IMG/VR virus record: IMGVR_UViG_3300031800_000001
Coordinates: 1 to 64,000 of that record
Source: a virus
Direction: 5' to 3' (one strand)
DNA length: 64,000 nt
Shown: positions 4,902 through 31,256 of the stretch, in pieces
Layout: the number at the start of each line of letters is the position of its first letter
Numbering within the stretch: the stretch's first letter is position 1
The notes under the pieces: generated by a model
The model's database searches: none
Seen by the model: only the letters and a program-made list of their open reading frames with translations
Told to the model about the DNA's origin: nothing
Program-made: the position numbers and the translations under genes

Positions 4902-4968
4902 CTCAACTGGTTAGAGCAGTACACTCATAATGTATTGGCTGGGGGTTCAAGTCCCTCAAGGCCCACCA
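4892..4968 (+). tRNA. tRNA with CAT anticodon, probably tRNA-Ile2 (alternatively Met)
   Basis: Acceptor GGGCCTT/AAGGCCC-A-CCA, D-arm TAGCTCA..TGGTTAGAGC, anticodon loop CTCATAA, T-loop TTCAAGT; G1-C72 pair argues against initiator. Confidence 0.9.
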
Positions 4969-4995
4969 TTAAATTTTAATAAAATACGGCAAACG

Positions 4996-14914: not shown

Positions 14915-15865
14915 ATGACTACTGATACAGAATACTTTCCTACGGTTGTGGGACAAGAACGGGCCAAGCGTAAGTTATCTTATTTTTTAGATAATTGGAA
15001 AAGCTCTGGCGTACTCCCAAACACAATGTTCGTCGCGCCTCGCGGGTGTGGCAAAACCATGCTGGCTACGCTTCTCGCGGCGACCATGAAAGAACACGCG
15101 CCGCGCAAGATAGGTCGTGTGGTGAACTGTGCGTCCATCAAGAACCTTAACCAGTTCATCAACGGGACGATTATCCCCTATATCCAGAACAAGGACTGTA
15201 CTCTCCTGTTGGACGAGGCATCCGAACTCCCCCGCGATGTGGAGATGGCACTACTGACCATCCTTAATCCCAATCCAGAGAACCGCAACACTTTTTCGTA
15301 TGAGGACTATACGATTGACTTTGATTTCACGCGCCAGACCTTTCTGCTCGCTACCACCGAAGCACACAAGGTTTTCCATGCTCTCATGGATAGGCTTGAC
15401 CGTGTGGATTTAGAGGAATACAAGAATCATCATCTTGGGGAGATTATTCGGCGCAATCTTGTTAATGCTGAATTTGACGCTGGCGTATTGGATGAAATTT
15501 CCACCGTGCTGCGTAGCAATGCGCGTCAAGCACAACGCATGGCAAACAACATTCGTAATCTTCTCACCAAAAAGAAATCCAAAAAATTCACAAGAAAGGA
15601 TTGGGAGCGGATGAAACACCACCTTGGCATCCGTCCTTTGGGCTTAAACGAAAACGAGATTCTGTGTCTCCGTGCCTTGTCAGAGAAGAAGGCGTCGAGC
15701 CTCACTTGCATCAGCGCGAAGTTGGGTATGTCAAAAGAGGTAATTCAACGCGACATTGAATTGTATCTCCAAAAAATGAATCTAATGGAAATCAGCACCG
15801 ATGGTCGTAGTTGTACTGCATTCGGACTGAAGTATTTAATGCGCCATGTTGAAGATTGCGAATGA
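14915..15865 (+). CDS. RuvB-like AAA+ ATPase (Holliday junction helicase-like)
   Basis: VGQE..K, Walker A APRGCGKT, Walker B LLLDEA, LATTE, DRL, C-terminal winged-helix-like region; no RuvA seen in window. Confidence 0.8.
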   Translation: MTTDTEYFPTVVGQERAKRKLSYFLDNWKSSGVLPNTMFVAPRGCGKTMLATLLAATMKEHAPRKIGRVVNCASIKNLNQFINGTIIPYIQNKDCTLLLDEASELPRDVEMALLTILNPNPENRNTFSYEDYTIDFDFTRQTFLLATTEAHKVFHALMDRLDRVDLEEYKNHHLGEIIRRNLVNAEFDAGVLDEISTVLRSNARQAQRMANNIRNLLTKKKSKKFTRKDWERMKHHLGIRPLGLNENEILCLRALSEKKASSLTCISAKLGMSKEVIQRDIELYLQKMNLMEISTDGRSCTAFGLKYLMRHVEDCE

Positions 15866-18350: not shown

Positions 18351-18511
18351 GCCTAAAATCGCTATAACTGAAACTTTCTTTTGATTGAGTTATTTGCACT
18401 ATCCCAATAATACCATGATTCTAAAAATCGGCCAGCTTTTTCTGTTGTGAGTAAATAAGGCTTGACATCGGGGGCGCGGGTCCCCTAATGTAATCGGGTC
18501 CCCGCCGCGGC

Positions 18512-18568
18512 TGTGAATAACCTGTGGATAAGTTTAGGGTTGACAAGGGGTCTTTTTTGTGTTATATT
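18512..18568 (+). promoter_or_regulatory. tandem DnaA boxes plus sigma70 promoter
   Basis: TGTGAATAA 18512, TGTGGATAA 18523, TTGACA(18540)-17-TATATT, ATG 18575. Confidence 0.75.
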
Positions 18569-18574
18569 ATAAGA

Positions 18575-18715
18575 ATGAAAGCGAGAAAGGCCAAGCCAAT
18601 AAAAGTCCGCGTAAGCCCCGAAGGGTTTATGGGTAGCGCGTCGCGTGAGCATCGCGTGAAAAGGGGCAAGGGTTCTTTTCGCCGCAACCCGAAACACAGG
18701 GGCAATTGTGAATAA
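18575..18715 (+). CDS. ArfA-like alternative ribosome-rescue peptide (46 aa)
   Basis: HRVKRGKGSFRRNPKH resembles the ArfA KGKGSYxRKxKH motif; own promoter. Confidence 0.6.
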   Translation: MKARKAKPIKVRVSPEGFMGSASREHRVKRGKGSFRRNPKHRGNCE

Positions 18716-18757
18716 GTTTTGCTCGCTATTCCCTCTCAACCTGCTATAATTATCGCC

Positions 18758-19258
18758 ATGAAACTGAACAACGTAGAACTAACTTACCAAGACACCGGAA
18801 CCAACCTTGCCGTTTGCATGATTGGAAACGATGCAGATATTGAACTGCAATTCAATTCATTCTGGAATCACGGCGCAACCAACGGAGAACTAAAGTGGAC
18901 AATGCCGTATCGAGCCTATTTTTGGACTGACGAAAAACGCTTTGTTAAAGCTCTCATCAATGGCGCATTGTTTTACATTCTTGAGAACTATCCCGAAAAG
19001 TTCAAAGGTAAAAAGGGCGGCGCGTTGACTCTTGCCCGTTACCTTGGCAAACGCCGTTTCCGTGAAATGCCACGCCAATCTCAATTAGTTTACACCCACC
19101 AAACTCTTGAGGAGTATTCCCTCGGAACCATCACCGCAGAATTTTCCGATAACTGCAACCTAAATTATCAGAGTGCGGTACGCAATCGCTCTTTTGATAT
19201 AATGAAAAAGACCTTGGACACACTCACGGACAAGGGCGCGGCCAAAAAAGCGTATTGA
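18758..19258 (+). CDS. hypothetical protein
   Basis: ORF 7 nt after TGCTATAAT. Confidence 0.7.
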   Translation: MKLNNVELTYQDTGTNLAVCMIGNDADIELQFNSFWNHGATNGELKWTMPYRAYFWTDEKRFVKALINGALFYILENYPEKFKGKKGGALTLARYLGKRRFREMPRQSQLVYTHQTLEEYSLGTITAEFSDNCNLNYQSAVRNRSFDIMKKTLDTLTDKGAAKKAY

Positions 19259-19289
19259 CATTAACCTAGAATCAGGAGATAATTAGATT

Positions 19290-20048
19290 ATGCAAATGAC
19301 ATTAAAGTTCGGGAATCCAAACGCCAAGCTCAAAGCCTTGGCAAAGCGTTTCAACATGGTGCTGAAAACCTTTTCGCTGCCTAGTGGCTGGACGTGTCCG
19401 GCGGCGAAGGAATGCCATTCACGCGCAGACCGTGAGACGGGAAAAATCGAGGATGGACAGCACACTCAATTCCGTTGCTTTCAAGCCAGCGCGGAAGCTC
19501 TTTATCCTTCCCTGCGGGCAATGGTTTGGCACAATCACGATTTGCTCATGGCAAAAGTTAACGATGGACATTTGGCGTTGGCCGATTTGATTCATGCCAG
19601 CCTCCCAAAGAAATTTGATATTTTGCGCGTCCACGTGGGCGGGGATTATTTCAATTTGAGTTACCTTGCCGCATGGTGTGAAGTGGCCAAGCGCAATCCT
19701 GAAAAGATGTTTTACTCCTACACTAAAAGCACCCACCTATGGGAATTGGCGGAGGCATCCAATGGCATACCGTCAAATCTGATTTTAACCGCATCGCGTG
19801 GTGGTTGGTTCGACAGCAAGATTGAAGAAAACGCATACAAGTGCGCCGAGGTTGTTTTTAGCGAAGAAGAAGCCGCGCAAAAAGGTTTAGAGATTGACCA
19901 CGACGATTCGCTTGCGGCGTTTGGCAAAAAGTCGTTTGCTCTCCTTCTGCATGGTACGCAACCGAAAGGTTCAAAAGCATCTAAAGCCTTGTCCAAGCTG
20001 CGTAAAGCTGGCAAGGGAGGATATAAAAAGGAGGTGGCGATGCTATAG
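19290..20048 (+). CDS. Gp88-like (gene product 88 family) protein
   Basis: N.KL, FSLPSG.TCP.A..C, CF, RVHVGGDYF, YSYTKS. Confidence 0.75.
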   Translation: MQMTLKFGNPNAKLKALAKRFNMVLKTFSLPSGWTCPAAKECHSRADRETGKIEDGQHTQFRCFQASAEALYPSLRAMVWHNHDLLMAKVNDGHLALADLIHASLPKKFDILRVHVGGDYFNLSYLAAWCEVAKRNPEKMFYSYTKSTHLWELAEASNGIPSNLILTASRGGWFDSKIEENAYKCAEVVFSEEEAAQKGLEIDHDDSLAAFGKKSFALLLHGTQPKGSKASKALSKLRKAGKGGYKKEVAML

Positions 20049-20139
20049 AAGAGTTTATAATTGTTGCAATGGTGTGTATGTTCGCCTTAGGCGGAAAAAT
20101 GTTCGAAGAATAAAATTAACCAAAAGAAAGAAAAATAAA

Positions 20140-20508
20140 ATGAAGCTAACAGCAAACAAGCTAAAAAACGGTGCTCTGTATTACAACACCAAATCACAAC
20201 GCGTGGAGCGCATGCTCGGCACGCTAAATACTAATCGTGTTTGGACTACCAGTCATGACGCTAGCCCAGAAGCAAACAAGTGCAACAACTTGCGTTTTGC
20301 AAACGGGCAAGAGGTGGACGGCTATCTTCAGGCTAGCCCGAAATGGAACGCAATGAAATCGGAAGAGGTCGAGAGACGGATTGCCGCCGAAGGTGGTGAA
20401 AAGAAGTGGCTCGAAAATGTTTTCGCAATTGCTGACAGGGAATTGCCGCCGTTGCCAACACCACGGCAGGATTCAATATCAAATCCGTTGGGCGCGGCGC
20501 AGCAATAG
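20140..20508 (+). CDS. hypothetical protein, related to 30313..30567
   Basis: ANKLKNGALYYN vs ANNLREGAIYIN. Confidence 0.65.
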   Translation: MKLTANKLKNGALYYNTKSQRVERMLGTLNTNRVWTTSHDASPEANKCNNLRFANGQEVDGYLQASPKWNAMKSEEVERRIAAEGGEKKWLENVFAIADRELPPLPTPRQDSISNPLGAAQQ

Positions 20509-20639
20509 AAGATCCAAATAGAAACCCCTAGGGCCCGGGAGGGCCTTAGGGGCGGGGGACAAATAAGGCTTGACATCCGCGGGGCGGGGCCCCGGCCTTG
20601 CCGTTTCGGGTTCCCGCTGGCGGAGGTGGATAAGTTTTT

Positions 20640-21400
20640 AATAAGAAAAGGGCGGATTGACGTGGTCAATGCACTTTAATGGACAACCCGACAGTTAAGC
20701 CAAGCCGTAGAATTCTCCAACCCTTTATGCCAACCCGATTTGGGTTAGCAAAAAAACTGAAATTAATGGGTAACAGGACTTCTTGATTACCTGCAACTAC
20801 TTTCGGAGCTAGATCAATGTTCATAGACCCTACAATACTTCGTACTCATCCACATCGCAAAGTCTCTCAACTCGACTCAGGCCCAAGAGATTGGTCGTCT
20901 CCCCCTTCTCGCTTCTGATGCCTTAAGGCTCTTGCAAACCTTTATTCGGCAATACCCGAGGAGCAACCGTCGCTACTCCAAATTGGTAACGGTGTAGGGA
21001 TTCGAACCCCACCAAACCAATATTCACCATCCACTTTCAATGCATCTCCAGCGGCGGCTTTCCTGATAAGGCTGCTTCACCCTGAGAGCTTAATAGCTCA
21101 AAGGTTAGAAGCACCAATTTCACCGTTAAATTTATAGATGTCCACCCGCCATGATGGATAAACCGTAAGTTGTCTTACCAACCCTGTCCCCAGCGGCCTA
21201 TTTGCATAACCGAAAGGGCGATGGAGGCGTTTCTCAGGGGCCATTTTCTGCGAACAGTTGGCCCCGACTCGGCATCTAATCGCTTGAGCCTGTAATCCAG
21301 CACTCAAGCGGTTGTTTCGTTAATCGCGCTGTTTTTCAAGCGCAGTTTTCGGAAACTAAAATTTTCTTTCAAAGAGCGGATTGAGCGTTTCCCAATCACT
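20640..21400 (-). ncRNA. candidate large structured non-coding RNA
   Basis: Consensus promoter 21407-21435, boxB/boxA-like leader, many hairpins, embedded tRNA-like domain, no credible ORF. Confidence 0.65.
20984..21127 (-). ncRNA. tRNA-like element (144 nt) with acceptor stem, T-arm and CCA but no canonical D/anticodon arms
   Basis: 5' AACGGTG pairs with 3' CACCGTT-A-CCA; T-arm TGGGG-TTCGAAT-CCCTA. Confidence 0.7.
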
Positions 21401-21406
21401 TTATCT

Positions 21407-21435
21407 ATTATAGACCCATTCTATGTTTGAGTCAA
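21407..21435 (-). promoter_or_regulatory. consensus sigma70 promoter (TAGAAT class)
   Basis: TTGACT-CAAACA-TAGAAT-GGGTC-TATAAT. Confidence 0.8.
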
Positions 21436-21716
21436 GATTTTTTTCAATTTCTTTTTGATGTAAGAGTAATCCTTGGCGCGGTTTACTATTACAGGAAAAT
21501 CGTCGTTTGCCTCACCCCAATACCAGTATTTTGCTGGTATGATTAGGGAGTAGTATTTGCTCTTGCCATTGTAATTGATATATGGCCCCTCTTTAGCTCT
21601 GTACATAACTGTATTCATCTGTGTCAATTATACGGTAATTCTAATTCACAGGCAAGCCCTTTCTTTGTGAATAAGTTTGTATTGCATGAAAGATAGAATG
21701 ATAGTATTCTTTAAAC

Positions 21717-21905
21717 ATGACAGCGAATGAAAAGCTAACGATTAAAGCCCAACTCTCAGAGTACCTTTTTGACAAGTCAATGCCCAACGGCCTCAAGGGC
21801 TGTAGGGTTTTTGTCATGGAAAACGACAACTTTGAAGGCATCTGGGAATTGAATAAATCTGAACTCTTGTCCGAACTGGCCGAGGCTACTGAAGGCTGTG
21901 AATAA
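21717..21905 (+). CDS. hypothetical protein ending in a DnaA box (TGT GAA TAA)
   Basis: Promoter 21682-21710, ATG 6 nt after -10. Confidence 0.65.
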   Translation: MTANEKLTIKAQLSEYLFDKSMPNGLKGCRVFVMENDNFEGIWELNKSELLSELAEATEGCE

Positions 21906-21955
21906 GTTTTTACGAATTAGCTCGCTATTACCTCTCAACCTGTTATACTATACCC

Positions 21956-22291
21956 ATGATTGAACGAGACATGAAACACAAATTCGAGAACTTGGATTTC
22001 CAAGACATTAGCAAGACCCACGGTGCTGACTCCATACAGGCTTGGGTGAAAATGGAGAACGGCTATGAGGCTTCCATCGTTAAACATGGCGGTTCGTATG
22101 GCAGCGAAAAAGGTCTGTATGAGATGGGCATTTTTGGCCCGAATGGCAGTATGTGCGACCCCCTTGGCTGGGATGATACTGTCTTGGGTTGGCTTACGCC
22201 TCAATTGGTGTCGCGCCATCTGCAGCTTCTCGCGCACAAGCGACGGCCTCCCTCCATGAGTGGGCAGGAAAATCACCCGCAAAGCACTTGA
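21956..22291 (+). CDS. phage hypothetical protein
   Basis: ENGYEASIV...SYG...GLYEM motif; extended -10 upstream. Confidence 0.7.
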   Translation: MIERDMKHKFENLDFQDISKTHGADSIQAWVKMENGYEASIVKHGGSYGSEKGLYEMGIFGPNGSMCDPLGWDDTVLGWLTPQLVSRHLQLLAHKRRPPSMSGQENHPQST

Positions 22292-22322
22292 CTGACAACT
22301 ATAATTATGTAATAATAATAAC

Positions 22323-22649
22323 ATGAAAGCAACTATCGAAATCAACCTAGATAATGACATCTTCCAGCTTGGAGGCGGTCTAGAACTTGCCCGCCTTCTT
22401 CGTAACTTGGCGGATGACGTAGAAAACAACAACGCTTGCAACCTTGGCTCGTATATCGCAGTAATAGATATAAACGGGAATAAGGTCGGAGAGTTTGAGG
22501 TCGTGGGCGAGCCTGACGACGAAACTAAATGGATTGAACCAAGCGAGGATGAAATTATCACTCAAGGCGATAAAAAATTAAAAGAGTATCTAGAACGACA
22601 AGAGTTTTCCAATGACACGGAAAGAAAGGAAACAAAGCAATGGTGGTAA
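22323..22649 (+). CDS. phage hypothetical protein
   Basis: I.LDND.F...ELARLLR.LA...DINGNKVG motif. Confidence 0.7.
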   Translation: MKATIEINLDNDIFQLGGGLELARLLRNLADDVENNNACNLGSYIAVIDINGNKVGEFEVVGEPDDETKWIEPSEDEIITQGDKKLKEYLERQEFSNDTERKETKQWW

Positions 22650-22749
22650 CATTTTTAATCTTACATATAACCGTAACCCTTCTTATCCCTGCTGCGCTGC
22701 TAGTGATGTGCGTGGAGGACATTCTGAACTTTTTAACAGGATACAAAAA

Positions 22750-22950
22750 ATGAGATACGGAATAATACAAAACGACAACCGGCAACAGACTCTTTTCTGG
22801 AGCGAGAAACTCAAGCAATGGATAGAGGTTGAGGGGCAATACTCGGCCATGAGGATTCTGGCAAAAGCGGTGCGCGGGCAAAAGTATACCCATAAGAGCG
22901 AGGAGATTCTTGAAGCAATTGTTGGCGAAATAAATAAGAAATACGCTTGA
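22750..22950 (+). CDS. hypothetical protein
   Basis: ORF ending at repeat module (CTTGAC). Confidence 0.5.
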   Translation: MRYGIIQNDNRQQTLFWSEKLKQWIEVEGQYSAMRILAKAVRGQKYTHKSEEILEAIVGEINKKYA

Positions 22951-23289
22951 CACAGGGGGCTGGGCGGGGTCCCGCCAAGTCAAGCTTTTTTTGTCAATCA
23001 TTTTTCGCGCTTTTTGATCGTCAAACTTTTTTGTCGATCACTCGTGATCGGCTAATTTGTTAGTCAAGCGTGAGTCAAGTTATCTGTCAATCAATTAGGC
23101 CCTTTAATCGCGTTTAATGAGGGTAATTGTTTTGAAGAATAACACTGTTTTTGTGGGGTATAGTGCCTGAAAATTTCTTGTTTACCCCCGCTTTCTCCGA
23201 TGTGAAATTCGTTGATTTTAAGAAATTGTGAACAGTGTGAGTAAGTTAGGTATTGACTTATAGGTATAATGGTGTTATATTATAGGTAG

Positions 23290-23571
23290 ATGAACGCAAT
23301 GGATAAATTCAAAGAGGAAATGGCGTTTTCGCTGTTTGGTCGTAGCCCATCGGTTTGCAAGGCCGGTGGTCAATGTGTGAAGTGCGGAGAGTTCGACCTT
23401 TCGTTTAGCGACGAACTCTCTCGCAAGGAGTTCGGCATCTCCGCTCTGTGCCAAACGTGCCAAGACGGAATCTTTGGCGTGGAGGAAGAACCCGAAGTTG
23501 GCCAAGGTTCTCACGCTATCCCCGGATTTTTCGTCCCACCCGCAGCATTAGACGGATTGGAGGGCGAATGA
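23290..23571 (+). CDS. small zinc-finger protein
   Basis: CVKC...S..EF.ISALCQTCQD; promoter TTGACT-17-TATATT upstream. Confidence 0.7.
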   Translation: MNAMDKFKEEMAFSLFGRSPSVCKAGGQCVKCGEFDLSFSDELSRKEFGISALCQTCQDGIFGVEEEPEVGQGSHAIPGFFVPPAALDGLEGE

Positions 23572-24020
23572 AAGGCTACGTCCAAGTATACCGCAACCTC
23601 AACAAGAAGTTGAGCAGTCAAGTCGGCAATGGAATCGACCCCAAGGTAGTTGGCGACCAACCCGTGTATAGTGTGCGCGGCAATGATGGGTTAGTAAAAA
23701 AACATCTCTGTCATTTTGTTATACATGACTGTACTTTTCGTGTGGGCAAAAAGGGCAATGAACGTGTGTGCTACGAGAAGCGCAAAAATGTTCACGCTTA
23801 TATTCAAGGGAGGGAGTGTTGGAACGAGGAAGAAAAACGGTGGGAGTACATTGGCCCAGATTGCAATTATGTTAATGACCCGAATACAGTCACCATTACC
23901 TACGACCCTTACAAGTACAAGACCTTTGTGCGCGTAGACACAGGCGAGCCAATACATAAAGCCAAGGTTGTCGTATTCGGTTGTGGCAAAATGGGCAGAG
24001 AGGTAAAAGCGATTTTATGA
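23568..24020 (+). CDS. phage hypothetical protein
   Basis: VYRNLN...YSV...RKNVHAY..G...YDPYK..TFV. Confidence 0.7.
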   Translation: MKGYVQVYRNLNKKLSSQVGNGIDPKVVGDQPVYSVRGNDGLVKKHLCHFVIHDCTFRVGKKGNERVCYEKRKNVHAYIQGRECWNEEEKRWEYIGPDCNYVNDPNTVTITYDPYKYKTFVRVDTGEPIHKAKVVVFGCGKMGREVKAIL

Positions 24021-24256
24021 AACACGAACCATCAATAAAAGATTTAATACTATTGAAAAAAATAGATATTATTAATACTAGAGAACAAATTCAAGAGGAT
24101 ATTGACACCTACCTAGGTGATAAAATCGACTATCCCGTGCAAGGGAAGGATATAGAAAATCTTTGTCAAATAGTAGTAGACAACTTTAATAAAAATTTAG
24201 GAGGAGAGTTTGATAGAAGGCGAGAGGCAGAGGAAAAAGGATTGTATGATGATTAA
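24017..24256 (+). CDS. hypothetical protein, paralog of 1718..1948
   Basis: REQIQEDI.TYL...LCQIVVDNF. Confidence 0.65.
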   Translation: MKHEPSIKDLILLKKIDIINTREQIQEDIDTYLGDKIDYPVQGKDIENLCQIVVDNFNKNLGGEFDRRREAEEKGLYDD

Positions 24257-24418
24257 ATAACTCCCAATTTTGTAATAGCTCCAAATAAATAACCCTTGCA
24301 AATAAGGCGAAAATCGGGGACCCGCAAGCGGGGTCCCCGCCGACTTATTCACAGTCAAGCTTTTTTTTCGTGAATAACTTTTCCTTGTAATTTTCAACCA
24401 ATCTGATATACTTTTCAA

Positions 24419-24661
24419 ATGATGAATGACCTACATGACATGATTCGGGTTTCCTGCGAGGAAGCCGTCACCGAGGACATGGGCCCTGCCACTTGGGCAA
24501 ATGAGCCCGAGCAGCCCCAGCCCGAGCCCTCCCACAGGGAGCAGCATGGGCGGTGCGAGGATGCGCCTTGCTGCGGGTGCTGTGGTGACGGCATGGAGGA
24601 TGGCTATGGCTCACCCGCTGATGATGCATGGCATGATGCCAATGAGTACCCAGACTGGTAG
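24419..24661 (+). CDS. acidic Cys-rich hypothetical protein
   Basis: RCEDAPCCGCC motif; ATG 6 nt after TATACT. Confidence 0.65.
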   Translation: MMNDLHDMIRVSCEEAVTEDMGPATWANEPEQPQPEPSHREQHGRCEDAPCCGCCGDGMEDGYGSPADDAWHDANEYPDW

Positions 24662-24790
24662 GCCTGTGGATAACTTTAGCTTGACGCCTCGGCGGGGGCC
24701 CCGAGTTATTCACAATGTCAAGCCCCTTTTGTGAATACTTTGTATAAGTTCACCCTTGACAAACAGGGTTTTTCGTGTTATATTATAACA

Positions 24791-24994
24791 ATGAAAGACG
24801 AACTATTCAAAGTAAAAATCGCCCTATGGCGCAAGGGCTTCAAGGGTTGCCCTTCTACCCAGCGTGAAACCCACATCAAGGCATTTGACTTGGCACACGC
24901 CAAGAGGATTAGTAACCGCCTATTCGGGACGCTAGGGGTAACAGTTGAACCCGTAGAAGGACGATTTGAAAGATTCAAAGAATTTAACAGGTAG
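24791..24994 (+). CDS. hypothetical protein
   Basis: Module promoter upstream; stop TAG lies in dyad repeat. Confidence 0.65.
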   Translation: MKDELFKVKIALWRKGFKGCPSTQRETHIKAFDLAHAKRISNRLFGTLGVTVEPVEGRFERFKEFNR

Positions 24995-25026
24995 GACGGC
25001 AGATGTCCCACCCTCTATGCTATACT
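24990..25026 (+). promoter_or_regulatory. dyad/extended -10 promoter repeat, copy 1
   Basis: GGTAGGAC-N7-GTCCCACC-N5-TGnTATACT. Confidence 0.8.
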
Positions 25027-25032
25027 CTACGC

Positions 25033-25230
25033 ATGAAAGAAATTAAGAATATGAAAAACGAAGCAATAAAAGTAAACGACAGAATCCAATGCAAGTCTCC
25101 GGGAAATCAAGGCGGCGTGATTGTCGGCATTGACACCGTGATGCACCTTGCCCTTGTCCGCTGGGATAACATCTTCACTAGTGAAATTATCGAGGCATGG
25201 GCAGGATTAGACGGTATTGAAAAAGTTTAA
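25033..25230 (+). CDS. hypothetical protein (SH3/KOW-like)
   Basis: IKVNDRIQ...GVIVG...VRWD. Confidence 0.6.
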   Translation: MKEIKNMKNEAIKVNDRIQCKSPGNQGGVIVGIDTVMHLALVRWDNIFTSEIIEAWAGLDGIEKV

Positions 25231-25231
25231 C

Positions 25232-25268
25232 GGTAGGACGGCAGATGTCCCACCCCCTGTGCTATACT
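25232..25268 (+). promoter_or_regulatory. dyad/extended -10 promoter repeat, copy 2
   Basis: Same consensus and spacing as copy 1. Confidence 0.8.
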
Positions 25269-25274
25269 AGACGC

Positions 25275-25454
25275 ATGATTAAAACAGATATGAAAGCAAG
25301 AGAATACACGAACCTACTACTAGAGCGCATTGAAGATGGCTCATATGATAAAGACCAAGTGATTATGGCTTGCGTTAAGTACATGAGTGAAGTTGACGTG
25401 GAGGACATGATGCAATGCAATGGAATGTTATTTGATGAGGACACGGAGAATTAA
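25275..25454 (+). CDS. hypothetical protein, near-identical duplicate of 28660..28818
   Basis: YTNLLLERIEDG.YDKDQVIMACVKYMSE.DV.DMM.CNG.LFDED. Confidence 0.75.
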   Translation: MIKTDMKAREYTNLLLERIEDGSYDKDQVIMACVKYMSEVDVEDMMQCNGMLFDEDTEN

Positions 25455-25464
25455 ATTAAGAATT

Positions 25465-25540
25465 ACACGGGAATGTTCCAAGGTGGCGACAGAGTCTCCA
25501 AAACTCCGTGAGGTAGGTTCGATTCCTGCCCCGTGTGCCA
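25465..25540 (+). tRNA. tRNA-Trp (CCA), atypical D-arm
   Basis: Acceptor ACACGGG/CCCGTGT-G-CCA, anticodon arm GAGT-CTCCAAA-ACTC, T-loop TTCGATT. Confidence 0.8.
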
Positions 25541-25549
25541 TTTAAGATT

Positions 25550-25783
25550 ATGAAAAAGAAAATGAAAACTTACAAGGTAGAGTTTAGGACAGCATTCGCT
25601 GGCTCGCCCTTCGTTCCAATCGTCCTTGAAGCAAAAGACGAAAACCAAGCCCAATGGGTTGCCCGCAACCTTTGCCGCTTTGGATACATTAGTGCCGCCC
25701 CAGTGGTTGTAGATGATGAGCCGTATTATACGGAAGCAACTCACGATTGGGCTTACGATGAAAATTACGAAGTTTATAGCTAG
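25550..25783 (+). CDS. hypothetical protein (YKV.F...A.DE..A family)
   Basis: ORF; similar pattern to 28944 and 24791. Confidence 0.55.
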   Translation: MKKKMKTYKVEFRTAFAGSPFVPIVLEAKDENQAQWVARNLCRFGYISAAPVVVDDEPYYTEATHDWAYDENYEVYS

Positions 25784-25793
25784 AAAGAAAATT

Positions 25794-26054
25794 ATGAAAG
25801 AATACGAAGCAACCTATACAAACGAAAGCCCGCAGGAATATCCCAACGGCAAGGTAACACTCGGCAGCGAGCCTCTTGAGCCATACGGTACGGTGACGTA
25901 TCACATTATGAATTGGCATTCATTTGATGATTTAGGCACGACAATGGAAACAGTCCAAGTGTGGAATCCTAAAACTAAAAGACTGTTTGAAATTTATTCA
26001 ACCGATGAAGGCGAGACTTTTACCTTCACTCAACCGGAACCTTACTTGGCATAA
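25794..26054 (+). CDS. hypothetical protein
   Basis: ORF with AATTATG start context. Confidence 0.55.
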   Translation: MKEYEATYTNESPQEYPNGKVTLGSEPLEPYGTVTYHIMNWHSFDDLGTTMETVQVWNPKTKRLFEIYSTDEGETFTFTQPEPYLA

Positions 26055-26058
26055 GATT

Positions 26059-26277
26059 ATGATAAAGAACGGAAAAAAACAAAACGTAGTGCCGACCAGC
26101 AGAGAGCAAAATCTTGCCTGTGCCAAGTTAGAGATTTCCTACCCTATGGCTTGCTTGTTATTCAAGCGGCTACAGTGGGCCAACAACATGGGAACGGGTG
26201 AGGATGATTATAATGTTCTTGAAGCTCATTTTATTGAGAAGCAGGGAACGCATAATTATATTAAGGAGGGATTTTAA
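26059..26277 (+). CDS. hypothetical protein
   Basis: ORF with GATTATG start context. Confidence 0.5.
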   Translation: MIKNGKKQNVVPTSREQNLACAKLEISYPMACLLFKRLQWANNMGTGEDDYNVLEAHFIEKQGTHNYIKEGF

Positions 26278-26586
26278 TATGAAAGATGATTTCAGAGATA
26301 TTTATTTTGTTCTTATTATTGGCATCGCATCATTTTTTATTATATTAGCGGCGGGTATTTATAGTACGCTGCGATACGGTAGTTTTTAGAATTATGAAAA
26401 CAAAAAAACTCCAAATAAAAAAAAACTCCAAATAAATAGACTATGCAAATATGTAAATGAATATTTTTTGCAAAAAACAGGCAAAAATGGGGCCCCCGAA
26501 GTTATTCACAATGCCAAAGGTTTTTGTGAATACTTTGGATAAGTACACCATTGACAAACCCCTTTTTGTGTGGTATATTTAAGTAG

Positions 26587-26715
26587 TTCGTGAGGGTAGT
26601 GAGGTGAACGGAGCCAAGAGCCCCCTATGATGCGCCAAGCTACCTCTCACGAATGCCACCTCTGCAAACGGTGAGGAAACATAAGAACGCAAGAGACGTT
26701 TGTATTTCAGTGGCA
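26587..26715 (+). ncRNA. candidate structured RNA (two long hairpins) between promoter and tRNA-Thr
   Basis: TTCGTGAG.GTAG/CTAC.TCTCACGAA and TGCCAC..TGCAAACG/CGTTTGTA..GTGGCA; no ORF. Confidence 0.45.
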
Positions 26716-26725
26716 CAATTTATTA

Positions 26726-26801
26726 GCCAGATTAGCTCAGTTGGTAGAGCAGCAGTTTTGTAACCTGCAGGCCACCCGTTCAAGTCGGGTATCTGGCTCC
26801 A
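26726..26801 (+). tRNA. tRNA-Thr (TGT)
   Basis: GCCAGAT/ATCTGGC-T-CCA, TAGCTCAGTTGGTAGAGC, loop TTTGTAA, T-loop TTCAAGT. Confidence 0.9.
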
Positions 26802-26808
26802 GATTTTA

Positions 26809-26845
26809 GGTAGGACTACGGATGTCCCACCCCCTGTGCTATACT
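26809..26845 (+). promoter_or_regulatory. dyad/extended -10 promoter repeat, copy 3
   Basis: Same consensus and spacing as copy 1. Confidence 0.8.
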
Positions 26846-26851
26846 AGACGC

Positions 26852-27154
26852 ATGATTAAAACGAATATGAAAAACAAAAAAGAAACCCATTGCCCGCCTC
26901 TGCTTTCCACGCAGGTGCTTCTCAACAACGAAGTCAAAGTCACTTCCATCGCTAGTCAATTTCACGGTCAAACTGGAATCGTCAACGCTATCATGGCTGA
27001 TGGCCGCACTCTTGAAGTTGACTTCGGCAAAGCCAAGGTTGCTTTCATCGACGTCACCCTAGTGAGTGAGATTCAAGAGCAAACCTATTTCGCCAAGACC
27101 GAGCAAAGTCTTGGCCCTGACGCAAACAGCGTTTTACCTCAGAACAGGCTTTAA
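26852..27154 (+). CDS. KOW/SH3-like hypothetical protein, paralog of 29164..29433
   Basis: LLN.E..VTS....F.G..G.VNAI.ADGR.L.V...EIQEQTYFAK. Confidence 0.7.
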   Translation: MIKTNMKNKKETHCPPLLSTQVLLNNEVKVTSIASQFHGQTGIVNAIMADGRTLEVDFGKAKVAFIDVTLVSEIQEQTYFAKTEQSLGPDANSVLPQNRL

Positions 27155-27158
27155 GATT

Positions 27159-27440
27159 ATGAGAAACATCATCAACGCAAACAACGAAGATTCAACCGAA
27201 CCCTTTGCAGTAGCTCTGCACGTCATCCTGCGCAACTTCTGGGAGTATTACCTAGAAGAGCCAGACGAAAACGGCATTGCCTTTGGCTATGTCATGGGAT
27301 TTGAAAATGAATGGGGCAGCGTTTACTTACCGGAACTCAAGCCGTACATCGTAAGCATTGCACGAGGCAAGGAGCTTGATTACATAATGCCACCCGAAGG
27401 ATATTATTGGGAAAACGAAAATGAATTTGACGTTGACTGA
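27159..27440 (+). CDS. DUF2958-like hypothetical protein
   Basis: W.YY..E.....FGYV.GFENEWG.V.L.EL pattern. Confidence 0.55.
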   Translation: MRNIINANNEDSTEPFAVALHVILRNFWEYYLEEPDENGIAFGYVMGFENEWGSVYLPELKPYIVSIARGKELDYIMPPEGYYWENENEFDVD

Positions 27441-27690
27441 GTAATCGGGCATCGTTGAGCCTGTCGCCCTCGTGGCGGTGGTAAAGGGTTGCTCGCTGAT
27501 GGCGGCAACCCCGCTCTCAATTTATTACCCAGACTGGTGAGCCTGTGGATAAGTTTTCCTTGACGCCCCCGGCGGGGGACCCGGACTTATTCACAATGCA
27601 AGCTTATTTTGTGAATTGTGTGTGAATAAGTTTATCTCGCCTTTTCCGTTTTTTTAAGGTATACTTTACGTATTGAAAGTGAGAGACGCA

Positions 27691-27852
27691 ATGACTGAAG
27701 AACAAAAGAGAGAAGAGCAACGCAAGACAGAGAACCGCTTGCAGCGTTGGAATGAATCCGTTGCGAAGGTGCAAGCCCTCCAAGCGGCGTGGCAGAGAGA
27801 AGAACTTGCCCGCAATCCCAACAAGGTTTTCTTAAAAGAATTTAACAGGTAG
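27691..27852 (+). CDS. hypothetical protein (53 aa)
   Basis: Ends KEFNR* like 24791..24994, with its stop in the dyad repeat. Confidence 0.55.
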   Translation: MTEEQKREEQRKTENRLQRWNESVAKVQALQAAWQREELARNPNKVFLKEFNR

Positions 27853-27884
27853 GACTGCGGATGTCCCACCTCGTGTGGTATACT
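27848..27884 (+). promoter_or_regulatory. dyad/extended -10 promoter repeat, copy 4
   Basis: Same consensus and spacing as copy 1. Confidence 0.8.
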
Positions 27885-27890
27885 AGACGC

Positions 27891-28073
27891 ATGATTAAAA
27901 CGAATATGAAAAACAAAAACGAAAAAACAGTGAAAGTCTCGCGGGTCAATCAGGCCACGGGCAAACGGGAAACCGTTTCAATCCCAGCAAGTGAGTGGAA
28001 CAACGCCGGACAAAGCCGCGTGAATGCTCTCATTCAACAAAGCGTGGACTACGCAAACAAAGTCGAGAGGTAG
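27891..28073 (+). CDS. hypothetical protein
   Basis: Shares N-terminus MIKTNMKNK with 26852; stop in the next repeat. Confidence 0.6.
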   Translation: MIKTNMKNKNEKTVKVSRVNQATGKRETVSIPASEWNNAGQSRVNALIQQSVDYANKVER

Positions 28074-28105
28074 GACGGCAGATGTCCCACCTCGTATGCT
28101 ATACT
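28069..28105 (+). promoter_or_regulatory. dyad/extended -10 promoter repeat, copy 5
   Basis: Same consensus and spacing as copy 1. Confidence 0.8.
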
Positions 28106-28129
28106 AGACGCAGTTAGAAGATAAAGAAT

Positions 28130-28297
28130 ATGAAAAACAAAAATGAAAACACAAACGAGCTGACCTTCAGAGGTTGGCACAGTGACGAAAACGAAACCTT
28201 CACGGGTGTTCGCAATGACAGTTTCGGCAATGATTGCCGTGACCACGACCAAGATGCTTGGAATTTCGAGATTGACGAAACCGATTGCTGGAAGTAA
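28130..28297 (+). CDS. acidic hypothetical protein (55 aa)
   Basis: ORF after repeat; N-terminus MKNKNE shared with neighbour. Confidence 0.55.
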   Translation: MKNKNENTNELTFRGWHSDENETFTGVRNDSFGNDCRDHDQDAWNFEIDETDCWK

Positions 28298-28302
28298 AAA
28301 TT

Positions 28303-28497
28303 ATGAAACACAACATCCAAAACGCAAGCGCGTTCAAAACTAAACAACTCGGCGACAAGCTCAACAAAGTAATTGAGCGAATCCCGAAACTCAAACTAAC
28401 AAGAGACGACGAGGATATGCTTCACATCGTTGCGCTCATCACCTTTATTGTAACACTACTCGGCACAGCACTTGTGATTTTAGCATTGGCATTTTAA
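28303..28497 (+). CDS. hypothetical membrane protein
   Basis: C-terminal hydrophobic helix. Confidence 0.55.
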   Translation: MKHNIQNASAFKTKQLGDKLNKVIERIPKLKLTRDDEDMLHIVALITFIVTLLGTALVILALAF

Positions 28498-28659
28498 TTA
28501 TGATAGTAGAAAACAAACAGATAAAAGTAGGCGATGAGATTCGCTTTGGAATGCAGCTAATGATAGTTGATGAGATTACAGAATTTAACACCATCATTGC
28601 AGTTGATGAAGATGGACAAGATTTAGAACTGACAGAGAATGAAATTGATATTTATTAAG

Positions 28660-28818
28660 ATGATGAAAACTAGAAAATACACAAACCTACTACTGGAGCG
28701 CATTGAAGATGGCCTGTATGATAAAGACCAAGTGATTATGGCTTGCGTTAAGTATATGAGCGAGGACGACGTGCAGGATATGATGGATTGCAATGGCCTG
28801 TTATTTGATGAGGATTAA
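28660..28818 (+). CDS. hypothetical protein, duplicate of 25275..25454
   Basis: Near-identical nucleotide and protein sequence. Confidence 0.75.
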   Translation: MMKTRKYTNLLLERIEDGLYDKDQVIMACVKYMSEDDVQDMMDCNGLLFDED

Positions 28819-28943
28819 AGTTAATAACTTTTGTTTGACAAAAATCGGGGACCCGCCGAGTTATTCACAATGCAAGCTTATTTTGTGAATACTTTGAATA
28901 ACTACACCCTTGACAAACGGGGTTTTTTGTGGTATATTTAGGT

Positions 28944-29096
28944 ATGGTAAACGAAGAAAGCATCTACAAAGTGACCTTCAAATGGACAGGTCAAAATGAG
29001 TTTGTGAAAGCTCGCAACGAAGCCCACGCGCTGCGCATCGCCTCCCGTTGGGGAGCCATTGAATCAGTCGAATTCGACTGTGAGGAATGTGAATAA
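28944..29096 (+). CDS. hypothetical protein (50 aa) ending in a DnaA box
   Basis: ATG 5 nt after TATATT; ends TGT GAA TAA. Confidence 0.6.
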   Translation: MVNEESIYKVTFKWTGQNEFVKARNEAHALRIASRWGAIESVEFDCEECE

Positions 29097-29163
29097 GTTT
29101 ATCTCGCCTTTTGGGCGAATTCATGAGACAATATAAACAGTTAAGAGAAAGAAAATTAAGAAT

Positions 29164-29433
29164 ATGAAAAAAGAAAACAACATCACAGAAGCACAACTCC
29201 TGCTGAATCAGGAAATCGTCGTCACCTCTCACCTCTCACGTTTCACAGGCCGCAAGGGTCGCGTGAATGCCATCTCGGCAGATGGTCGCAGCCTAGACGT
29301 TACCCTCGAAGGCGTGGGCGATGTATTCCTAGACGTTTCCCTCGTGGGTGAAATCCAAGAGCAAACCTATTTCGCCAAAGGTGAAGCAGACCTCGGCCCA
29401 ATCGCCAACAGCGTTGTGCAAGCCCACAAGTAA
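29164..29433 (+). CDS. KOW/SH3-like hypothetical protein, paralog of 26852..27154
   Basis: Shared motif through EIQEQTYFAK...LGP.ANSV. Confidence 0.7.
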   Translation: MKKENNITEAQLLLNQEIVVTSHLSRFTGRKGRVNAISADGRSLDVTLEGVGDVFLDVSLVGEIQEQTYFAKGEADLGPIANSVVQAHK

Positions 29434-29454
29434 AAACTCAAACCTTAAAAAATT

Positions 29455-29667
29455 ATGACTAAACAACATTTCGAATTTGTCGCCTCACTAATCAACGCCG
29501 CTACCAAAGGCGTTGCACCTCAACACCTCGCCATCTTGGCCGCTGCCAAGTTCACGAAGGACAACCCACGCTTTGACAAGGGGCGTTTCTATAACGCTTG
29601 CGGGTTATGCTCTGACGGCACTCCCAAGGTCGCGAAGATGTACGGATTGGAAAATCACGCACTATGA
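29455..29667 (+). CDS. phage hypothetical protein
   Basis: MTK.HFE..A...F..DNPRFD..RF..ACG motif. Confidence 0.7.
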   Translation: MTKQHFEFVASLINAATKGVAPQHLAILAAAKFTKDNPRFDKGRFYNACGLCSDGTPKVAKMYGLENHAL

Positions 29668-29740
29668 AAATGAATATTGACAGGCAATGCCTTTACGGAA
29701 TATTTATAGCAATTATTTTAATATTAACCAACTAAAAATT

Positions 29741-29923
29741 ATGAAAAAAAACAACCTACCCGTTATTGGTAAAATCCAAGACGTCAACGACGAAGCCAAC
29801 AAACTTTTCAGAGATAAAGTTATGATGCCAATGGTCACATTTGCTGTGACAATTATGTTCGTTGCAATCATCCTTGACTATGGCTTCCAACTTATTGACG
29901 CAATCGACATTCTGTGCCAGTAA
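29741..29923 (+). CDS. hypothetical membrane protein
   Basis: Hydrophobic helix. Confidence 0.5.
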   Translation: MKKNNLPVIGKIQDVNDEANKLFRDKVMMPMVTFAVTIMFVAIILDYGFQLIDAIDILCQ

Positions 29924-30049
29924 GTTTTACTTGACACCTCAACCCCAAAAATGGGGCCCCCGAAGTTATTCACATGTCAAGCGCTTTTTGTGAATAACTT
30001 GAATAAGTTCACCATTGACAAACCGCTCTTTTTGTGTTATATTATAACA

Positions 30050-30274
30050 ATGGAAACGATAATGATTAGCCCGACGAACAAAGCAAGCCAACGCACAAAG
30101 AACCGCATCCGTGAGAATGGGCCTGTGTTCAGTATCGACTTGAAGGAGGAAACGCAATGGCTCTTAAGGGCTGGCGTATCATTCAACGGAATCGTCTGGA
30201 TGGGCTGGCTACCTCGCAACGAATTCCACGTTGAATGCGTGGGCAAAAAGTTTATTGAAAAGGTTTTAGGGTAG
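30050..30274 (+). CDS. hypothetical protein
   Basis: ATG 6 nt after module -10; S.RTKNRIRE.GP motif; stop in dyad repeat. Confidence 0.65.
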   Translation: METIMISPTNKASQRTKNRIRENGPVFSIDLKEETQWLLRAGVSFNGIVWMGWLPRNEFHVECVGKKFIEKVLG

Positions 30275-30306
30275 GACGGCAGATGTCCCACCCACTGTGT
30301 TATACT
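30270..30306 (+). promoter_or_regulatory. dyad/extended -10 promoter repeat, copy 6
   Basis: Same consensus and spacing as copy 1. Confidence 0.8.
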
Positions 30307-30312
30307 ATACTT

Positions 30313-30567
30313 ATGATTATGAAAGACAACAAAGCAAACAACTTGCGCGAGGGCGCAATCTACATTAACGCCAACTCCGGCACGCCTTGCCGCTTGGTCA
30401 ACATCGTACCCTGTGAAGGTGCGTGGCTAGAAACCTTTGACGGCCAAGGCTACGGTGACACCGTAAAATTTGAGGATGTGCATTATGCAGATTCTGATGA
30501 TGTCCAAGATTTTTTGGAAGACCATCGCGTTTATAACGCAAGTGAGAAAGCTCCAAGCAGGGATTAA
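30313..30567 (+). CDS. hypothetical protein, related to 20140..20508
   Basis: ATG 6 nt after TATACT. Confidence 0.65.
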   Translation: MIMKDNKANNLREGAIYINANSGTPCRLVNIVPCEGAWLETFDGQGYGDTVKFEDVHYADSDDVQDFLEDHRVYNASEKAPSRD

Positions 30568-30828
30568 GTCCAAAGGCCCGTGGTGCCGGAGAGCACCTTA
30601 AATATCGAGGGCCACCCCACCTTAATACTCGAAACTGTCAATAAGTTTTTGTTGACAGACGTCGGGGCGGGGGGTATCTTCAGTCTCCCCGGGAATCTCC
30701 TCGCTATTAATATACAATCTATTAATTTACAGCAATAATTAATAATAAATAAAACTCAATTCAAAAAAACCCCCGGGGCTTTTTGTTTTTTCTGGTCTTT
30801 TCATTTACTATGTTGTAATATATAACAA

Positions 30829-31256
30829 GGGGGCGTACTGGTTTCGATTTGAAGCTTTACGCCAGATTGCAAGTAGAGGATGACGGTTGGCCTCTTAAAA
30901 AAACTGTCAAAAACATATATGCCAATGATGACATTGACATGGAGATGGCCCTTTCTGTAGACGAGGCTGACGAGATTCTCGCCAAGTTCGGATACGTTGA
31001 GGAGGAAGCCCTCTTGCTGGCAGTTTAAACCTGCCCCGTCCTACTCTGGATGCTCGTTAAAGAGCTAGGGCGTCGACAGCGAGCAAAAAACTGGACAGAT
31101 GAAGGGAGCCAGTATAAATAATCTCTTCATAAGTTCGCACAGGTCGGTTAGTCAAGTGACCCACCAACGCGAGTAAGAAATAATACTTGACTAAGCTTGT
31201 AGTATATCTGTCTGACGGTTTTGAAGACGTGGGTTCGACTCCCACCGCCTCCACCA
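30829..31256 (+). ncRNA. ssrA: tmRNA
   Basis: 5' GGGGGCG-TACTGGTTTCGA; 3' GTGGGTTCGACTCCCAC-CGCCTCC-ACCA with G3:U70; tag ORF 30921-31028 ANDD...LLLAV*. Confidence 0.95.

Follow-up and report, generated by a model that had tools for sequence, protein, structure and literature searches.

At cellular promoters, DnaA bound to nearby boxes acts as an activator or a repressor, and it also stimulates transcription of lambda; activation reportedly works through stabilization of RNA polymerase and repression through occlusion, the outcome being set by occupancy and the bound nucleotide (PMC8203912). Here, we analyzed viral DNA from positions 1 to 64,000 of the IMG/VR record IMGVR_UViG_3300031800_000001 (hereafter the window, 64 kb in length), in which ~18 short transcription units on the plus strand make up an early gene array of the host-takeover style at 18.4–30.7 kb, with DnaA boxes at many of its promoters. 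This arrangement suggests that early expression of the phage may be wired to host DnaA. As in the cellular DnaA-regulated promoters, i.e. those of E. coli dnaA and nrdAB and those known from B. subtilis and Caulobacter, the 9-mer boxes of the array lie upstream of or within sigma-70-type promoters. At E. coli nrdAB, a box lies beside a weak -35 and DnaA stabilizes the polymerase there. A similar geometry is seen in one of the promoter classes described below, class II, whose box directly precedes a weak -35. Unlike their cellular counterparts, the promoters described here are viral, number ~12 in 12 kb, have a fixed helical phasing, carry mainly TTATTCACA and have starts that look leaderless. 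As judged from sequence, the phage array would extend the known DnaA-box-controlled promoters to a new setting.

In the literature searched, we found no description of DnaA boxes as parts of phage early promoters, the injection-stop boxes of T5 being the nearest case. T5-like phages have ~8 boxes in their pre-early DNA, the region of first-step transfer (Heusterspreute 1987, as cited by Davison, 10.1101/866236), and the two systems are alike in that a lytic phage has multiple consensus boxes in pre-early or early DNA, conserved in relatives and unrelated to known origins. The T5 boxes and the array boxes also share the flank TGTGGATAA(C/G)T, and a role of DnaA has been hypothesized in each. 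The T5 boxes are direct pairs with a 3-bp gap that lie in long non-coding inverted repeats of the terminal redundancy and for which an injection stop has been proposed, whereas the boxes described here lie in individual promoters across a coding array, form only one tandem pair (with a 2-bp gap) and, as judged from the contig, involve no terminal repeat. Thus, the array does not have the make-up of a T5-type iss repeat region.

Two other kinds of described loci invite comparison. The SPO1 host-takeover module and the pre-early regions of the T5/T4 type consist of dense small, mostly orphan genes, each unit having its own strong host-type promoter and a hairpin or terminator, and we know of no DnaA boxes in SPO1 promoters. 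The array resembles these modules in its dense small, mostly orphan early genes and in the promoter and hairpin or terminator of each unit, with no sequence homology detected between them; what sets it apart from SPO1 are its leaderless starts, its tRNAs, its ArfA-like gene and the presence of three promoter classes. The SPO1 cluster comprises 26 genes (10.1101/569657). With the DnaA-titrating loci (E. coli datA and the B. subtilis box clusters) the array has in common that many non-origin boxes occur in a limited stretch. Loci of the datA type are compact, with ~5 boxes in ~1 kb plus IHF, and are not promoter-phased. Unlike datA, the array has its boxes at a density of 1.3 per kb and tied to promoters, with all 16 at promoter-defined distances.

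A preliminary description of this DNA had listed 16 perfect boxes in the array, fewer than about one being expected by chance. Every one of these 16 coordinates is an exact match to TTATNCACA/TGTGNATAA, and they are the only exact matches in the window, all lying within 18512–29997. By dinucleotide shuffling, 2.69 matches are expected per 64 kb; the maximum among 100 shuffles was 9 and none reached 16, while the chance expectation for the 12.2-kb array is 0.51. In the whole 116,086-bp contig, of which the window is the first 64 kb and which has a CheckV completeness of 71%, there are 17 exact boxes, the sole extra one being at 106469 (1 in the other 104 kb), documenting that boxes are not equally frequent elsewhere. 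The many near matches that had been noted are present as well: near-match boxes are enriched about two-fold, amounting to ~15 per genome copy, and the 12-mer TGTGRATAASTT, with up to one mismatch allowed, is found 21 times where 1.5 would be expected, with 20 of these occurrences falling within the array. Among the 16 exact boxes, 13 read TTATTCACA and three read TTATCCACA.

When 53 exact sites, drawn from seven phages (this one and six loci of relatives), were aligned, the box proved to be the invariant core of a longer, asymmetric element of 13 bp, TGTG(A/G)ATAA(C/G)TTT. The logo of this alignment reads TGTG(A 44 / G 8 / C 1)ATAA(C 35 / G 12)T T T; the eight specified positions of the DnaA consensus are invariant, and conservation extends in the 3' direction only, with nothing comparable on the 5' side. 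The start of the 3' flank, (C/G)T(T), is also found on R1–R4 of E. coli oriC (TGTGNATAAC; all four boxes have C next, and R3 and R4 read ...AACT) and on the T5 iss boxes TGTGGATAACTT and TGTGGATAAGTC, which together form a small reference sample. Accordingly, the match to the DnaA consensus that had been claimed earlier extends to the 3' flank of oriC and T5 boxes. Some sites stand alone; others form a direct tandem pair separated by 2 bp, divergent inverted pairs with gaps of 3, 6, 13–15 and 25, or convergent pairs with gaps of 32–34 around a hairpin. In three cases, the box also encodes the terminal Cys-Glu-stop of the gene before it. An asymmetric site that is used alone, in either orientation and with varying spacing suits a monomeric binder such as DnaA and not a dimer operator of fixed spacing. 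To our knowledge, none of the sites of CRP (TGTGA-N6-TCACA), MetR, Fur and IHF, nor the ARG box or the Pho box, fits the motif in its spacing or second half-site.

The promoters of the array fall into three classes, and the box is specific to two of them. Class I (six copies) consists of TTGACA/T-17-TATATT with a TG extension and has a box; class II (six copies) has an extended or plain -10 together with a non-canonical -35 (CTCGCT, CTCGCC, CTTGTA or TTGCAT) and likewise has a box; class III (six copies, 0 expected by chance) consists of a dyad, GGTAGGAC-N7-GTCCCACC, fused to an extended -10 and lacks a box. Classes I and II look dependent on the host RNA polymerase. The class III dyad, whose copies on the plus strand start at 24990, 25232, 26809, 27848, 28069 and 30270, has an invariant spacing to the -10, and three relatives keep it upstream of their orthologue of the 84-aa gene; a phage factor, perhaps the sigma factor of the phage, probably recognizes it. 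All six TTGAC (class I) promoters of the array have a box with at most one mismatch at a gap of 8, 17 or 19 from the -35, compared to none of the five TTGAC promoters elsewhere on the contig.

Each of the 16 boxes ends 29–107 nt upstream of a -10 hexamer, and these distances form four discrete classes: 29–32 nt for five boxes, with the box centre near -46; 38–42 nt for three boxes, with the centre near -57; 53–64 nt for six boxes, which are inverted copies; and 105–107 nt for two boxes, which lie before the inter-cassette GC hairpin. In class I, the element lies near -57 and/or -47, i.e. one helical turn apart, with an inverted copy ~23 bp farther upstream; in class II, it lies near -46 and the -35 is poor. 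Similarly, in the 53-site set the gap between box and TTGAC is 7–8 nt at nine sites and 17–19 nt at 14 sites, again one helical turn apart. A fixed position of the box adjoining the core promoter, which is a feature of DnaA-regulated promoters, is therefore present in the array, and it is kept in orthologous promoters. Of the layout described earlier, in which boxes occurred as tandem or inverted pairs just upstream of -35 elements, the linkage to promoters holds, whereas the restriction to pairs does not, single boxes occurring too.

Of 15 extended -10 promoters (18560–30320), 13 have the ATG of an open reading frame (ORF) 5–8 nt past the -10 hexamer, the distance being exactly 6 nt for ten of these; one of the two exceptions drives tRNA-Thr. 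This spacing points to leaderless mRNAs and implies systematic leaderless translation of the early genes. The internal genes of the units are preceded by TTAAGAWT-ATG, a non-Shine-Dalgarno word. As had been described, the array holds many tiny genes and two called tRNAs. Each unit drives one to a few products; these are proteins of 46–166 aa, mostly without a family, with several paralogous pairs and with GP88-like and L5-gp82-like proteins among them. Segmental paralogy at 83–88% nucleotide identity connects 24647–24698 with 27526–27577, 25290–25441 with 28663–28814, and 27044–27096 with 29326–29378, from which we deduce a recent duplication of cassettes made up of gene end, box and hairpin.

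A TerL search of IMG/VR returned 387 related contigs, including a complete 158-kb relative with terminal repeats (G001) and a contig of 136 kb (G002). Five relatives with a TerL identity of ~70% or more contain box clusters, with 7 boxes at 98–108 kb in G002, 6 in the last 2.3 kb of contig G003, 7 at 20–31 kb in G005, 8 at 10–16 kb in G009 and 5 at 39–43 kb in G010, and nearly all of these clustered boxes read TTATTCACA. The boxes are at fixed promoter positions in these relatives: at ~70% TerL identity, the box typically lies exactly 17 nt upstream of TTGACT. One complete relative is without such a cluster. Across 37 TerL-anchored loci, 39 boxes lie upstream of TerL and 5 downstream. Upstream of an orthologous 80-aa gene, three phages retain TGTGAATAACTTTT at 29–30 nt from the -10 while the intervening DNA has diverged. 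At the junction after the ArfA-like gene, two box-bearing phages have a poor -35 (CTCGCT or CTCGGC) and the box-less locus L089 has TTGACA, which is what one would predict were the box to make up for a weak -35.

Promoter class differs among relatives at orthologous early genes (those at 30313 and 18758, and their counterparts at junctions in L089, L090, L092, L093 and L095), the classes seen at such junctions being the class III dyad, box plus TTGACT, and plain TTGACA; promoter modules thus appear to have been exchanged as cassettes. In G002 (L089, G002:92001-112000), many minus-strand TTGAC-17-TATACT promoters have (C)GGATAAC(C) in the spacer between -35 and -10. The word and the 3' half of the box overlap in sequence, and the reader of the box might also recognize this word as a site of another kind.

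From the motif, its statistics and geometry, its conservation and its specificity for promoter classes, we infer both the binder and the direction of its effect. The best single explanation would be that host DnaA binds the boxes as a promoter co-factor, an assignment that we consider close to an even call. In this scheme, one molecule of host DnaA would bind per box via domain IV, cooperatively where boxes are tandem or phased, and DnaA just upstream of the -35 would act as a co-factor of host RNA polymerase by stabilizing the polymerase where the -35 is weak, while high DnaA occupancy might occlude the upstream contact. Early expression would then track the amount or the nucleotide state of DnaA in the infected cell, and replicating phage DNA would sequester DnaA as a side effect. 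Promoters that fire early have to rely on proteins of the host. No match to PF08299 or PF00308 was found in the contig at E<=1, nor one to PF08299 (Bac_DnaA_C) in five relatives, one complete genome included, at the same threshold; among 41 different ORFs scanned, none except the sigma factor had a helix-turn-helix or other DNA-binding family. The preliminary description had offered three ideas, namely coupling of early transcription to DnaA, a datA-type sink and use of DnaA for phage initiation, and the first of these is the best supported, by promoter linkage, conservation and the flank match.

Several observations weigh against DnaA as the reader. Position 5 of the box is T in 13 of the 16 sites here and in 44 of 53 (83%) across phages, so that the high-affinity form with C at this position, TTATCCACA, is not predominant, while oriC R1 and R4 and most T5 boxes carry C there; because the preference for T is kept across relatives, it indicates a constraint on a base that the DnaA consensus leaves free. 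The variant TTACTCACA recurs, and it alters a position at which E. coli DnaA reportedly tolerates changes poorly (Schaper and Messer 1995). In distant relatives, box plus flank are in exact register with the E. coli consensus of the upstream promoter (UP) element, matching it at 8–12 of 14 positions. The complete relative G001 has two boxes only and its early-type TTGAC promoters are without the element, indicating that the element is clade-specific and dispensable, and the arrays of the relatives hold many box-less consensus promoters. Finally, because the contig is 71% complete, a phage-encoded reader could be missing from it.

We first considered that a sequence-specific protein other than DnaA uses the 13-bp element as its operator, the identity to the DnaA consensus being coincidental. 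The candidates would be a small phage regulator, made early or borne by the virion, that shuts off early promoters or gives them a first boost, or another host transcription factor. Such a protein would account for the conserved site being longer than 9 bp, for the constraint of position 5 to an A/T-rich T and for the recurrence of the variant TTACTCACA, as well as for the clade-specificity of the element and its absence from the complete G001. The relatives also contain tight palindromes such as TTCACA-N3-TGTGAA, the promoter spacers of G002 carry the related word CGGATAACC, the array is full of conserved orphan proteins, and the phage already uses a dedicated class III dyad, presumably for a factor of its own. 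However, searches of Pfam, PHROGs and the ESM Atlas gave no candidate binder; in the ESM Atlas, the 84-aa and 93-aa proteins matched viral hypotheticals only. A phyletic filter (present in G000 and G002 and not in G001) was unspecific, returning dozens of genes because G001 is too divergent. Moreover, phage repressors do not usually have asymmetric sites that stand alone and at many different spacings, a chance match at eight of eight positions of the DnaA consensus together with a shared 3' flank is improbable, and immediate-early promoters cannot depend on a protein that is not yet made. On balance, we regard an operator for another protein as unlikely, although it is a serious rival.

The register with the UP element raises the alternative that AATAA(C/G)TTTTT is contacted by the C-terminal domains of the host RNA polymerase alpha subunits and that no dedicated factor is involved; TGTG would then merely ride along because the promoters are paralogous copies. 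In line with UP elements of the rrnB P1 type, the region from -38 to -59 is A/T-rich, and the register of the distal subsite and the T-tract are matched in relatives: when the gap is 17, AATAACTTTTT spans -57 to -47 and coincides exactly with the distal UP subsite. This alternative could also explain the A/T preference at position 5, and the box-less G001 is likewise A/T-rich upstream of its -35 hexamers. We scored -59 to -38 against NNAAAWWTWTTTTNNNAAANNN, the E. coli consensus, which may not apply to the host; on this scale, the background is 4.9 (standard deviation 1.9) and 0.24% of random 22-mers reach 11. The relatives overall score 8–12 of 14, and several of them, which have A-tracts at -45 to -40, match 11–12 of the 14 positions. 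By contrast, the class I promoters of this phage score just 4–7 of 14 against the background of 4.9, i.e. the A/T tract of the relatives is replaced here by box-like repeats, which indicates that it is the box itself that was multiplied. Proximal boxes (gap 7–8) score 2–5 of 14 in register. Also unlike UP elements, the sites have an invariant 5' extension, TGTG, kept across phages in which the intergenic DNA has otherwise diverged, they have G/C at -52, and they include inverted, far-upstream copies at about -80 and -120 as well as copies ahead of terminator hairpins, where contacts by alpha are unlikely. Taken together, we hold it improbable, if worth serious consideration, that the element is of the UP type only. 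A composite site touched by both DnaA and the alpha subunit is possible and would reconcile the two.

A primary role in replication, in which the boxes are promoter-associated DnaA origins or collectively a datA-like sink that starves the host origin, appears very unlikely to us. With 16 exact and ~15 near boxes per copy, the number of sites would multiply with phage replication, the one tandem pair is separated by 2 bp, as is typical of sites for DnaA oligomers, no phage initiator was recognized, and the DnaA-stimulated transcriptional activation of ori-lambda is a precedent. Yet the boxes are dispersed and unclustered over 12 kb at promoter-defined positions, in a layout that, as had been pointed out earlier, is unlike a compact oriC; and most boxes are the T variant, which is not the form of highest affinity. 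DnaA-trio arrays of four or more trios were not found beside the boxes, nor was a box-adjacent AT-rich unwinding element, the AT-rich windows being few and apart from the tandem boxes. The two remaining ideas of the preliminary description therefore found no specific support: the sink because of the dispersed, fixed promoter positions and the prevalence of the T variant, and phage initiation because neither a trio array nor an unwinding element accompanies the boxes. Because phage replication genes were not found on a contig that is 71% complete, the argument from absence is weak. Two AT-rich CTCCAAATAAA repeats (a 13-codon mini-ORF that is unique to the contig and unconserved in relatives) were considered as an origin element and rejected.

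The least credible alternative, and one to which we give hardly any weight, is a role in RNA, with inverted copies forming inter-cassette hairpins for RNA processing, attenuation or the extension of terminators: inverted pairs do fold into stems of 9–12 bp (z = -2.7 to -3.0 for three of seven modules folded) and box 24665 can pair with 24706 around a GC hairpin, or 24706 with the variant at 24730, as alternative structures, but the stems are A/U-rich with loops of 12–17 nt and no U-tract, both arms keep the same sequence without covariation, the boxes of distant relatives are mostly single and partnerless, and the position of the box is fixed to the downstream promoter and not to the upstream gene. 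A generic terminator scan showed no enrichment, with 22 matches against 16.1 (standard deviation 4.5).

Along the array, the promoter modules and the units that they drive are arranged as follows, all on the plus strand. Module A (class I, 18447–18574) begins with a variant box, TGTGAGTAA, at 18447 and contains a TTGACA with GC hairpins, the tandem boxes 18512 and 18523 (2-bp gap), the -35 at 18540 and the extended -10 at 18560–18568; the ATG at 18575 opens the gene of the ArfA-like mini-protein (46 aa, 18575–18715), whose Cys-Glu-stop codons are box 18707. In module B (class II, 18707–18757), that box (18707–18715) is followed by 29 nt that include CTCGCT in the place of the -35 and then by TATAAT at 18745; its ATG at 18758 starts a gene of 166 aa, after which comes the GP88-like gene at 19290–20048. 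Module C (21642–21716), which was partly read directly from the sequence, is composed of a variant inverted box, box 21666 and TTGCAT-17-TATTCT, and its gene (ATG 21717, 62 aa) ends in box 21897. The latter box opens module D (class II, 21897–21955), with CTCGCT, an extended -10 at 21941 and an ATG at 21956 (111 aa). Between modules B and C, the ORF-poor stretch at 20.1–21.7 kb contains, downstream of a consensus minus-strand promoter at 21435, a match to the manA RNA motif (RF01745, 20763–20977, minus strand) that is full-length but sub-threshold, at 34.6 bits compared to a gathering threshold of 55.2 (E 2e-6).

Module E (class I, 23236–23289) has a one-mismatch box, TGTGAGTAA, at a gap of 8 from TTGACT, followed by an extended -10 at 23273 and an ATG at 23290 (93 aa). 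In module F (class II, 24315–24418), a GC hairpin is followed by the inverted box 24345, the variant CGTGAATAA at 24369 and an extended -10 at 24404; its gene starts at ATG 24419 (80 aa), and the distance from box to -10 is kept in two relatives. Module G (class I, 24665–24790) comprises box 24665, a GC hairpin, the inverted box 24706 and variants at 24730 and 24741, with the -35 at 24756, the extended -10 at 24776 and the ATG at 24791 (67 aa). It is followed by two class III promoters without a box (24990–25274), with dyads at 24990 and 25232 and ATGs at 25033 and 25275, and by tRNA-Trp (25465–25540), which was called by ARAGORN only, is absent from the Rfam tRNA matches at the gathering threshold and may be atypical. 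Module H (class I, 26502–26801), with the inverted box 26502, variants at 26525 and 26535, the -35 at 26551 and the extended -10 at 26571, has tRNA-Thr (26726–26801) as its product. A class III promoter at 26809–26851 then precedes the ATG of a 100-aa gene at 26852.

In module I (class II, 27544–27665), box 27544, a GC hairpin, the inverted box 27587 and box 27621 precede CTCGCC and TATACT at 27660. Downstream lie two further class III promoters (27848–28129), with dyads at 27848 and 28069 and ATGs at 27891 and 28130. Module J (class I, 28861–28943) carries the inverted box 28861, a variant at 28884, the -35 at 28910 and the extended -10 at 28930, and its gene (ATG 28944, 50 aa) ends in box 29088. 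This box begins module K (29088–29163), which is class II-like and in part a direct reading of the sequence, with CTCGCC, CAATAT at 29129 and an ATG at 29164 (89 aa). Finally, module L (class I, 29966–30049) has the inverted box 29966, box 29989, the -35 at 30015, the extended -10 at 30035 and an ATG at 30050 (74 aa), and the last class III promoter (30270–30312) precedes ATG 30313, the start of an 84-aa gene that is ~70% conserved in relatives.

The ArfA-like 46-aa peptide is basic and has the motif KRGKGSFRRNPKH, and its orthologues in three relatives retain K(K/R)GKGS(F/Y)xRxxKH. A profile of the four sequences searched against the PDB had solely ArfA chains as its top matches (E 0.013–0.045), and all four sequences matched the Pfam family ArfA with a best E of 5e-5, below the curated cutoff. 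Directly downstream of the array lies a full-length tmRNA (30829–31256, plus strand; RF00023, 147.6 bits), and a ClpP-like protease is encoded at 44671–45414. By these similarities, the phage seems to carry a ribosome-rescue set of its own, composed of the ArfA-like peptide, the tmRNA and the ClpP-like protease, a set that is of note given the leaderless-looking early mRNAs.

The source of the contig is a divergent, uncultured tailed phage of ~160 kb. A megablast search of the array against 50,697 phage records gave no near-identical relative. Its genes include those for an ATP-dependent ligase, rIIA, rIIB, a sigma-70-family factor, a RuvB-like AAA+ protein, an IMPDH/GMP-reductase-like enzyme and the ClpP-like protease. 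The sigma factor (4930–5820, plus strand) has regions 2, 3 and 4 by Pfam and matches PHROG 351 with an E of 5e-62; it lies outside the box array and, as part of the same transcription program, is a candidate reader of a non-canonical promoter class. A protein with AAA+ and winged-helix domains (14915–15865) was considered as an initiator and rejected, being RuvB-like or clamp-loader-like instead.

Different genes point to different host lineages, and these signals conflict. TerL is ~24% identical to that of 165-kb Bacillus siphoviruses, rIIA ~34% to that of 147-kb roseophages, and the GP88-like protein 35–44% to those of Synechococcus phages, while the IMPDH/GMP-reductase-like gene (7064–8218 of the window, plus strand) has its closest homologues in Bacteroidota (53–59%). 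The ArfA-like gene hints at a beta- or gammaproteobacterial host, whereas leaderless starts and mycobacteriophage families are compatible with an actinobacterial one. A TerL search of species genomes found no relative. A Bacillota host, which we had read from a TRTG -16 extension and the TerL matches, received no support from later evidence and was abandoned. An 83%-identical partial copy of the IMPDH/GMP-reductase-like gene lies at the end of a 14.8-kb contig (NZCP01000005.1; L115) binned as 'Candidatus Woesebacteria', and this contig is probably a mis-binned relative of the phage.

Even if DnaA were not the reader, the array provides a clean grammar of three promoter classes for a group of phages that is large, abundant and so far unstudied. 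Its promoter modules are self-contained units of ~100 bp with natural box-plus and box-minus variants and a leaderless ATG that can be fused to a reporter, and they could be put to the test in E. coli. With DnaA as the reader, the boxes would give these phages a simple, portable way of sensing cell growth and replication, via a near-universal protein that is hard for the host to change; the role of DnaA as a transcription factor would extend to viral programs, and there would be a possible reason for the so far unexplained DnaA boxes in T5 pre-early DNA. More tentatively, and as something that we hold less likely than not, we suggest that a clade of uncultured large phages uses DnaA as a required co-activator of immediate-early, leaderless host-takeover genes. 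If this is true, the first burst of expression would read the replication and growth state of the host in the form of its DnaA-ATP level, and phage DNA, as it amplifies, would bind up DnaA in its turn and keep the host from re-initiating, making up a general and hitherto undescribed circuit between phage and host.

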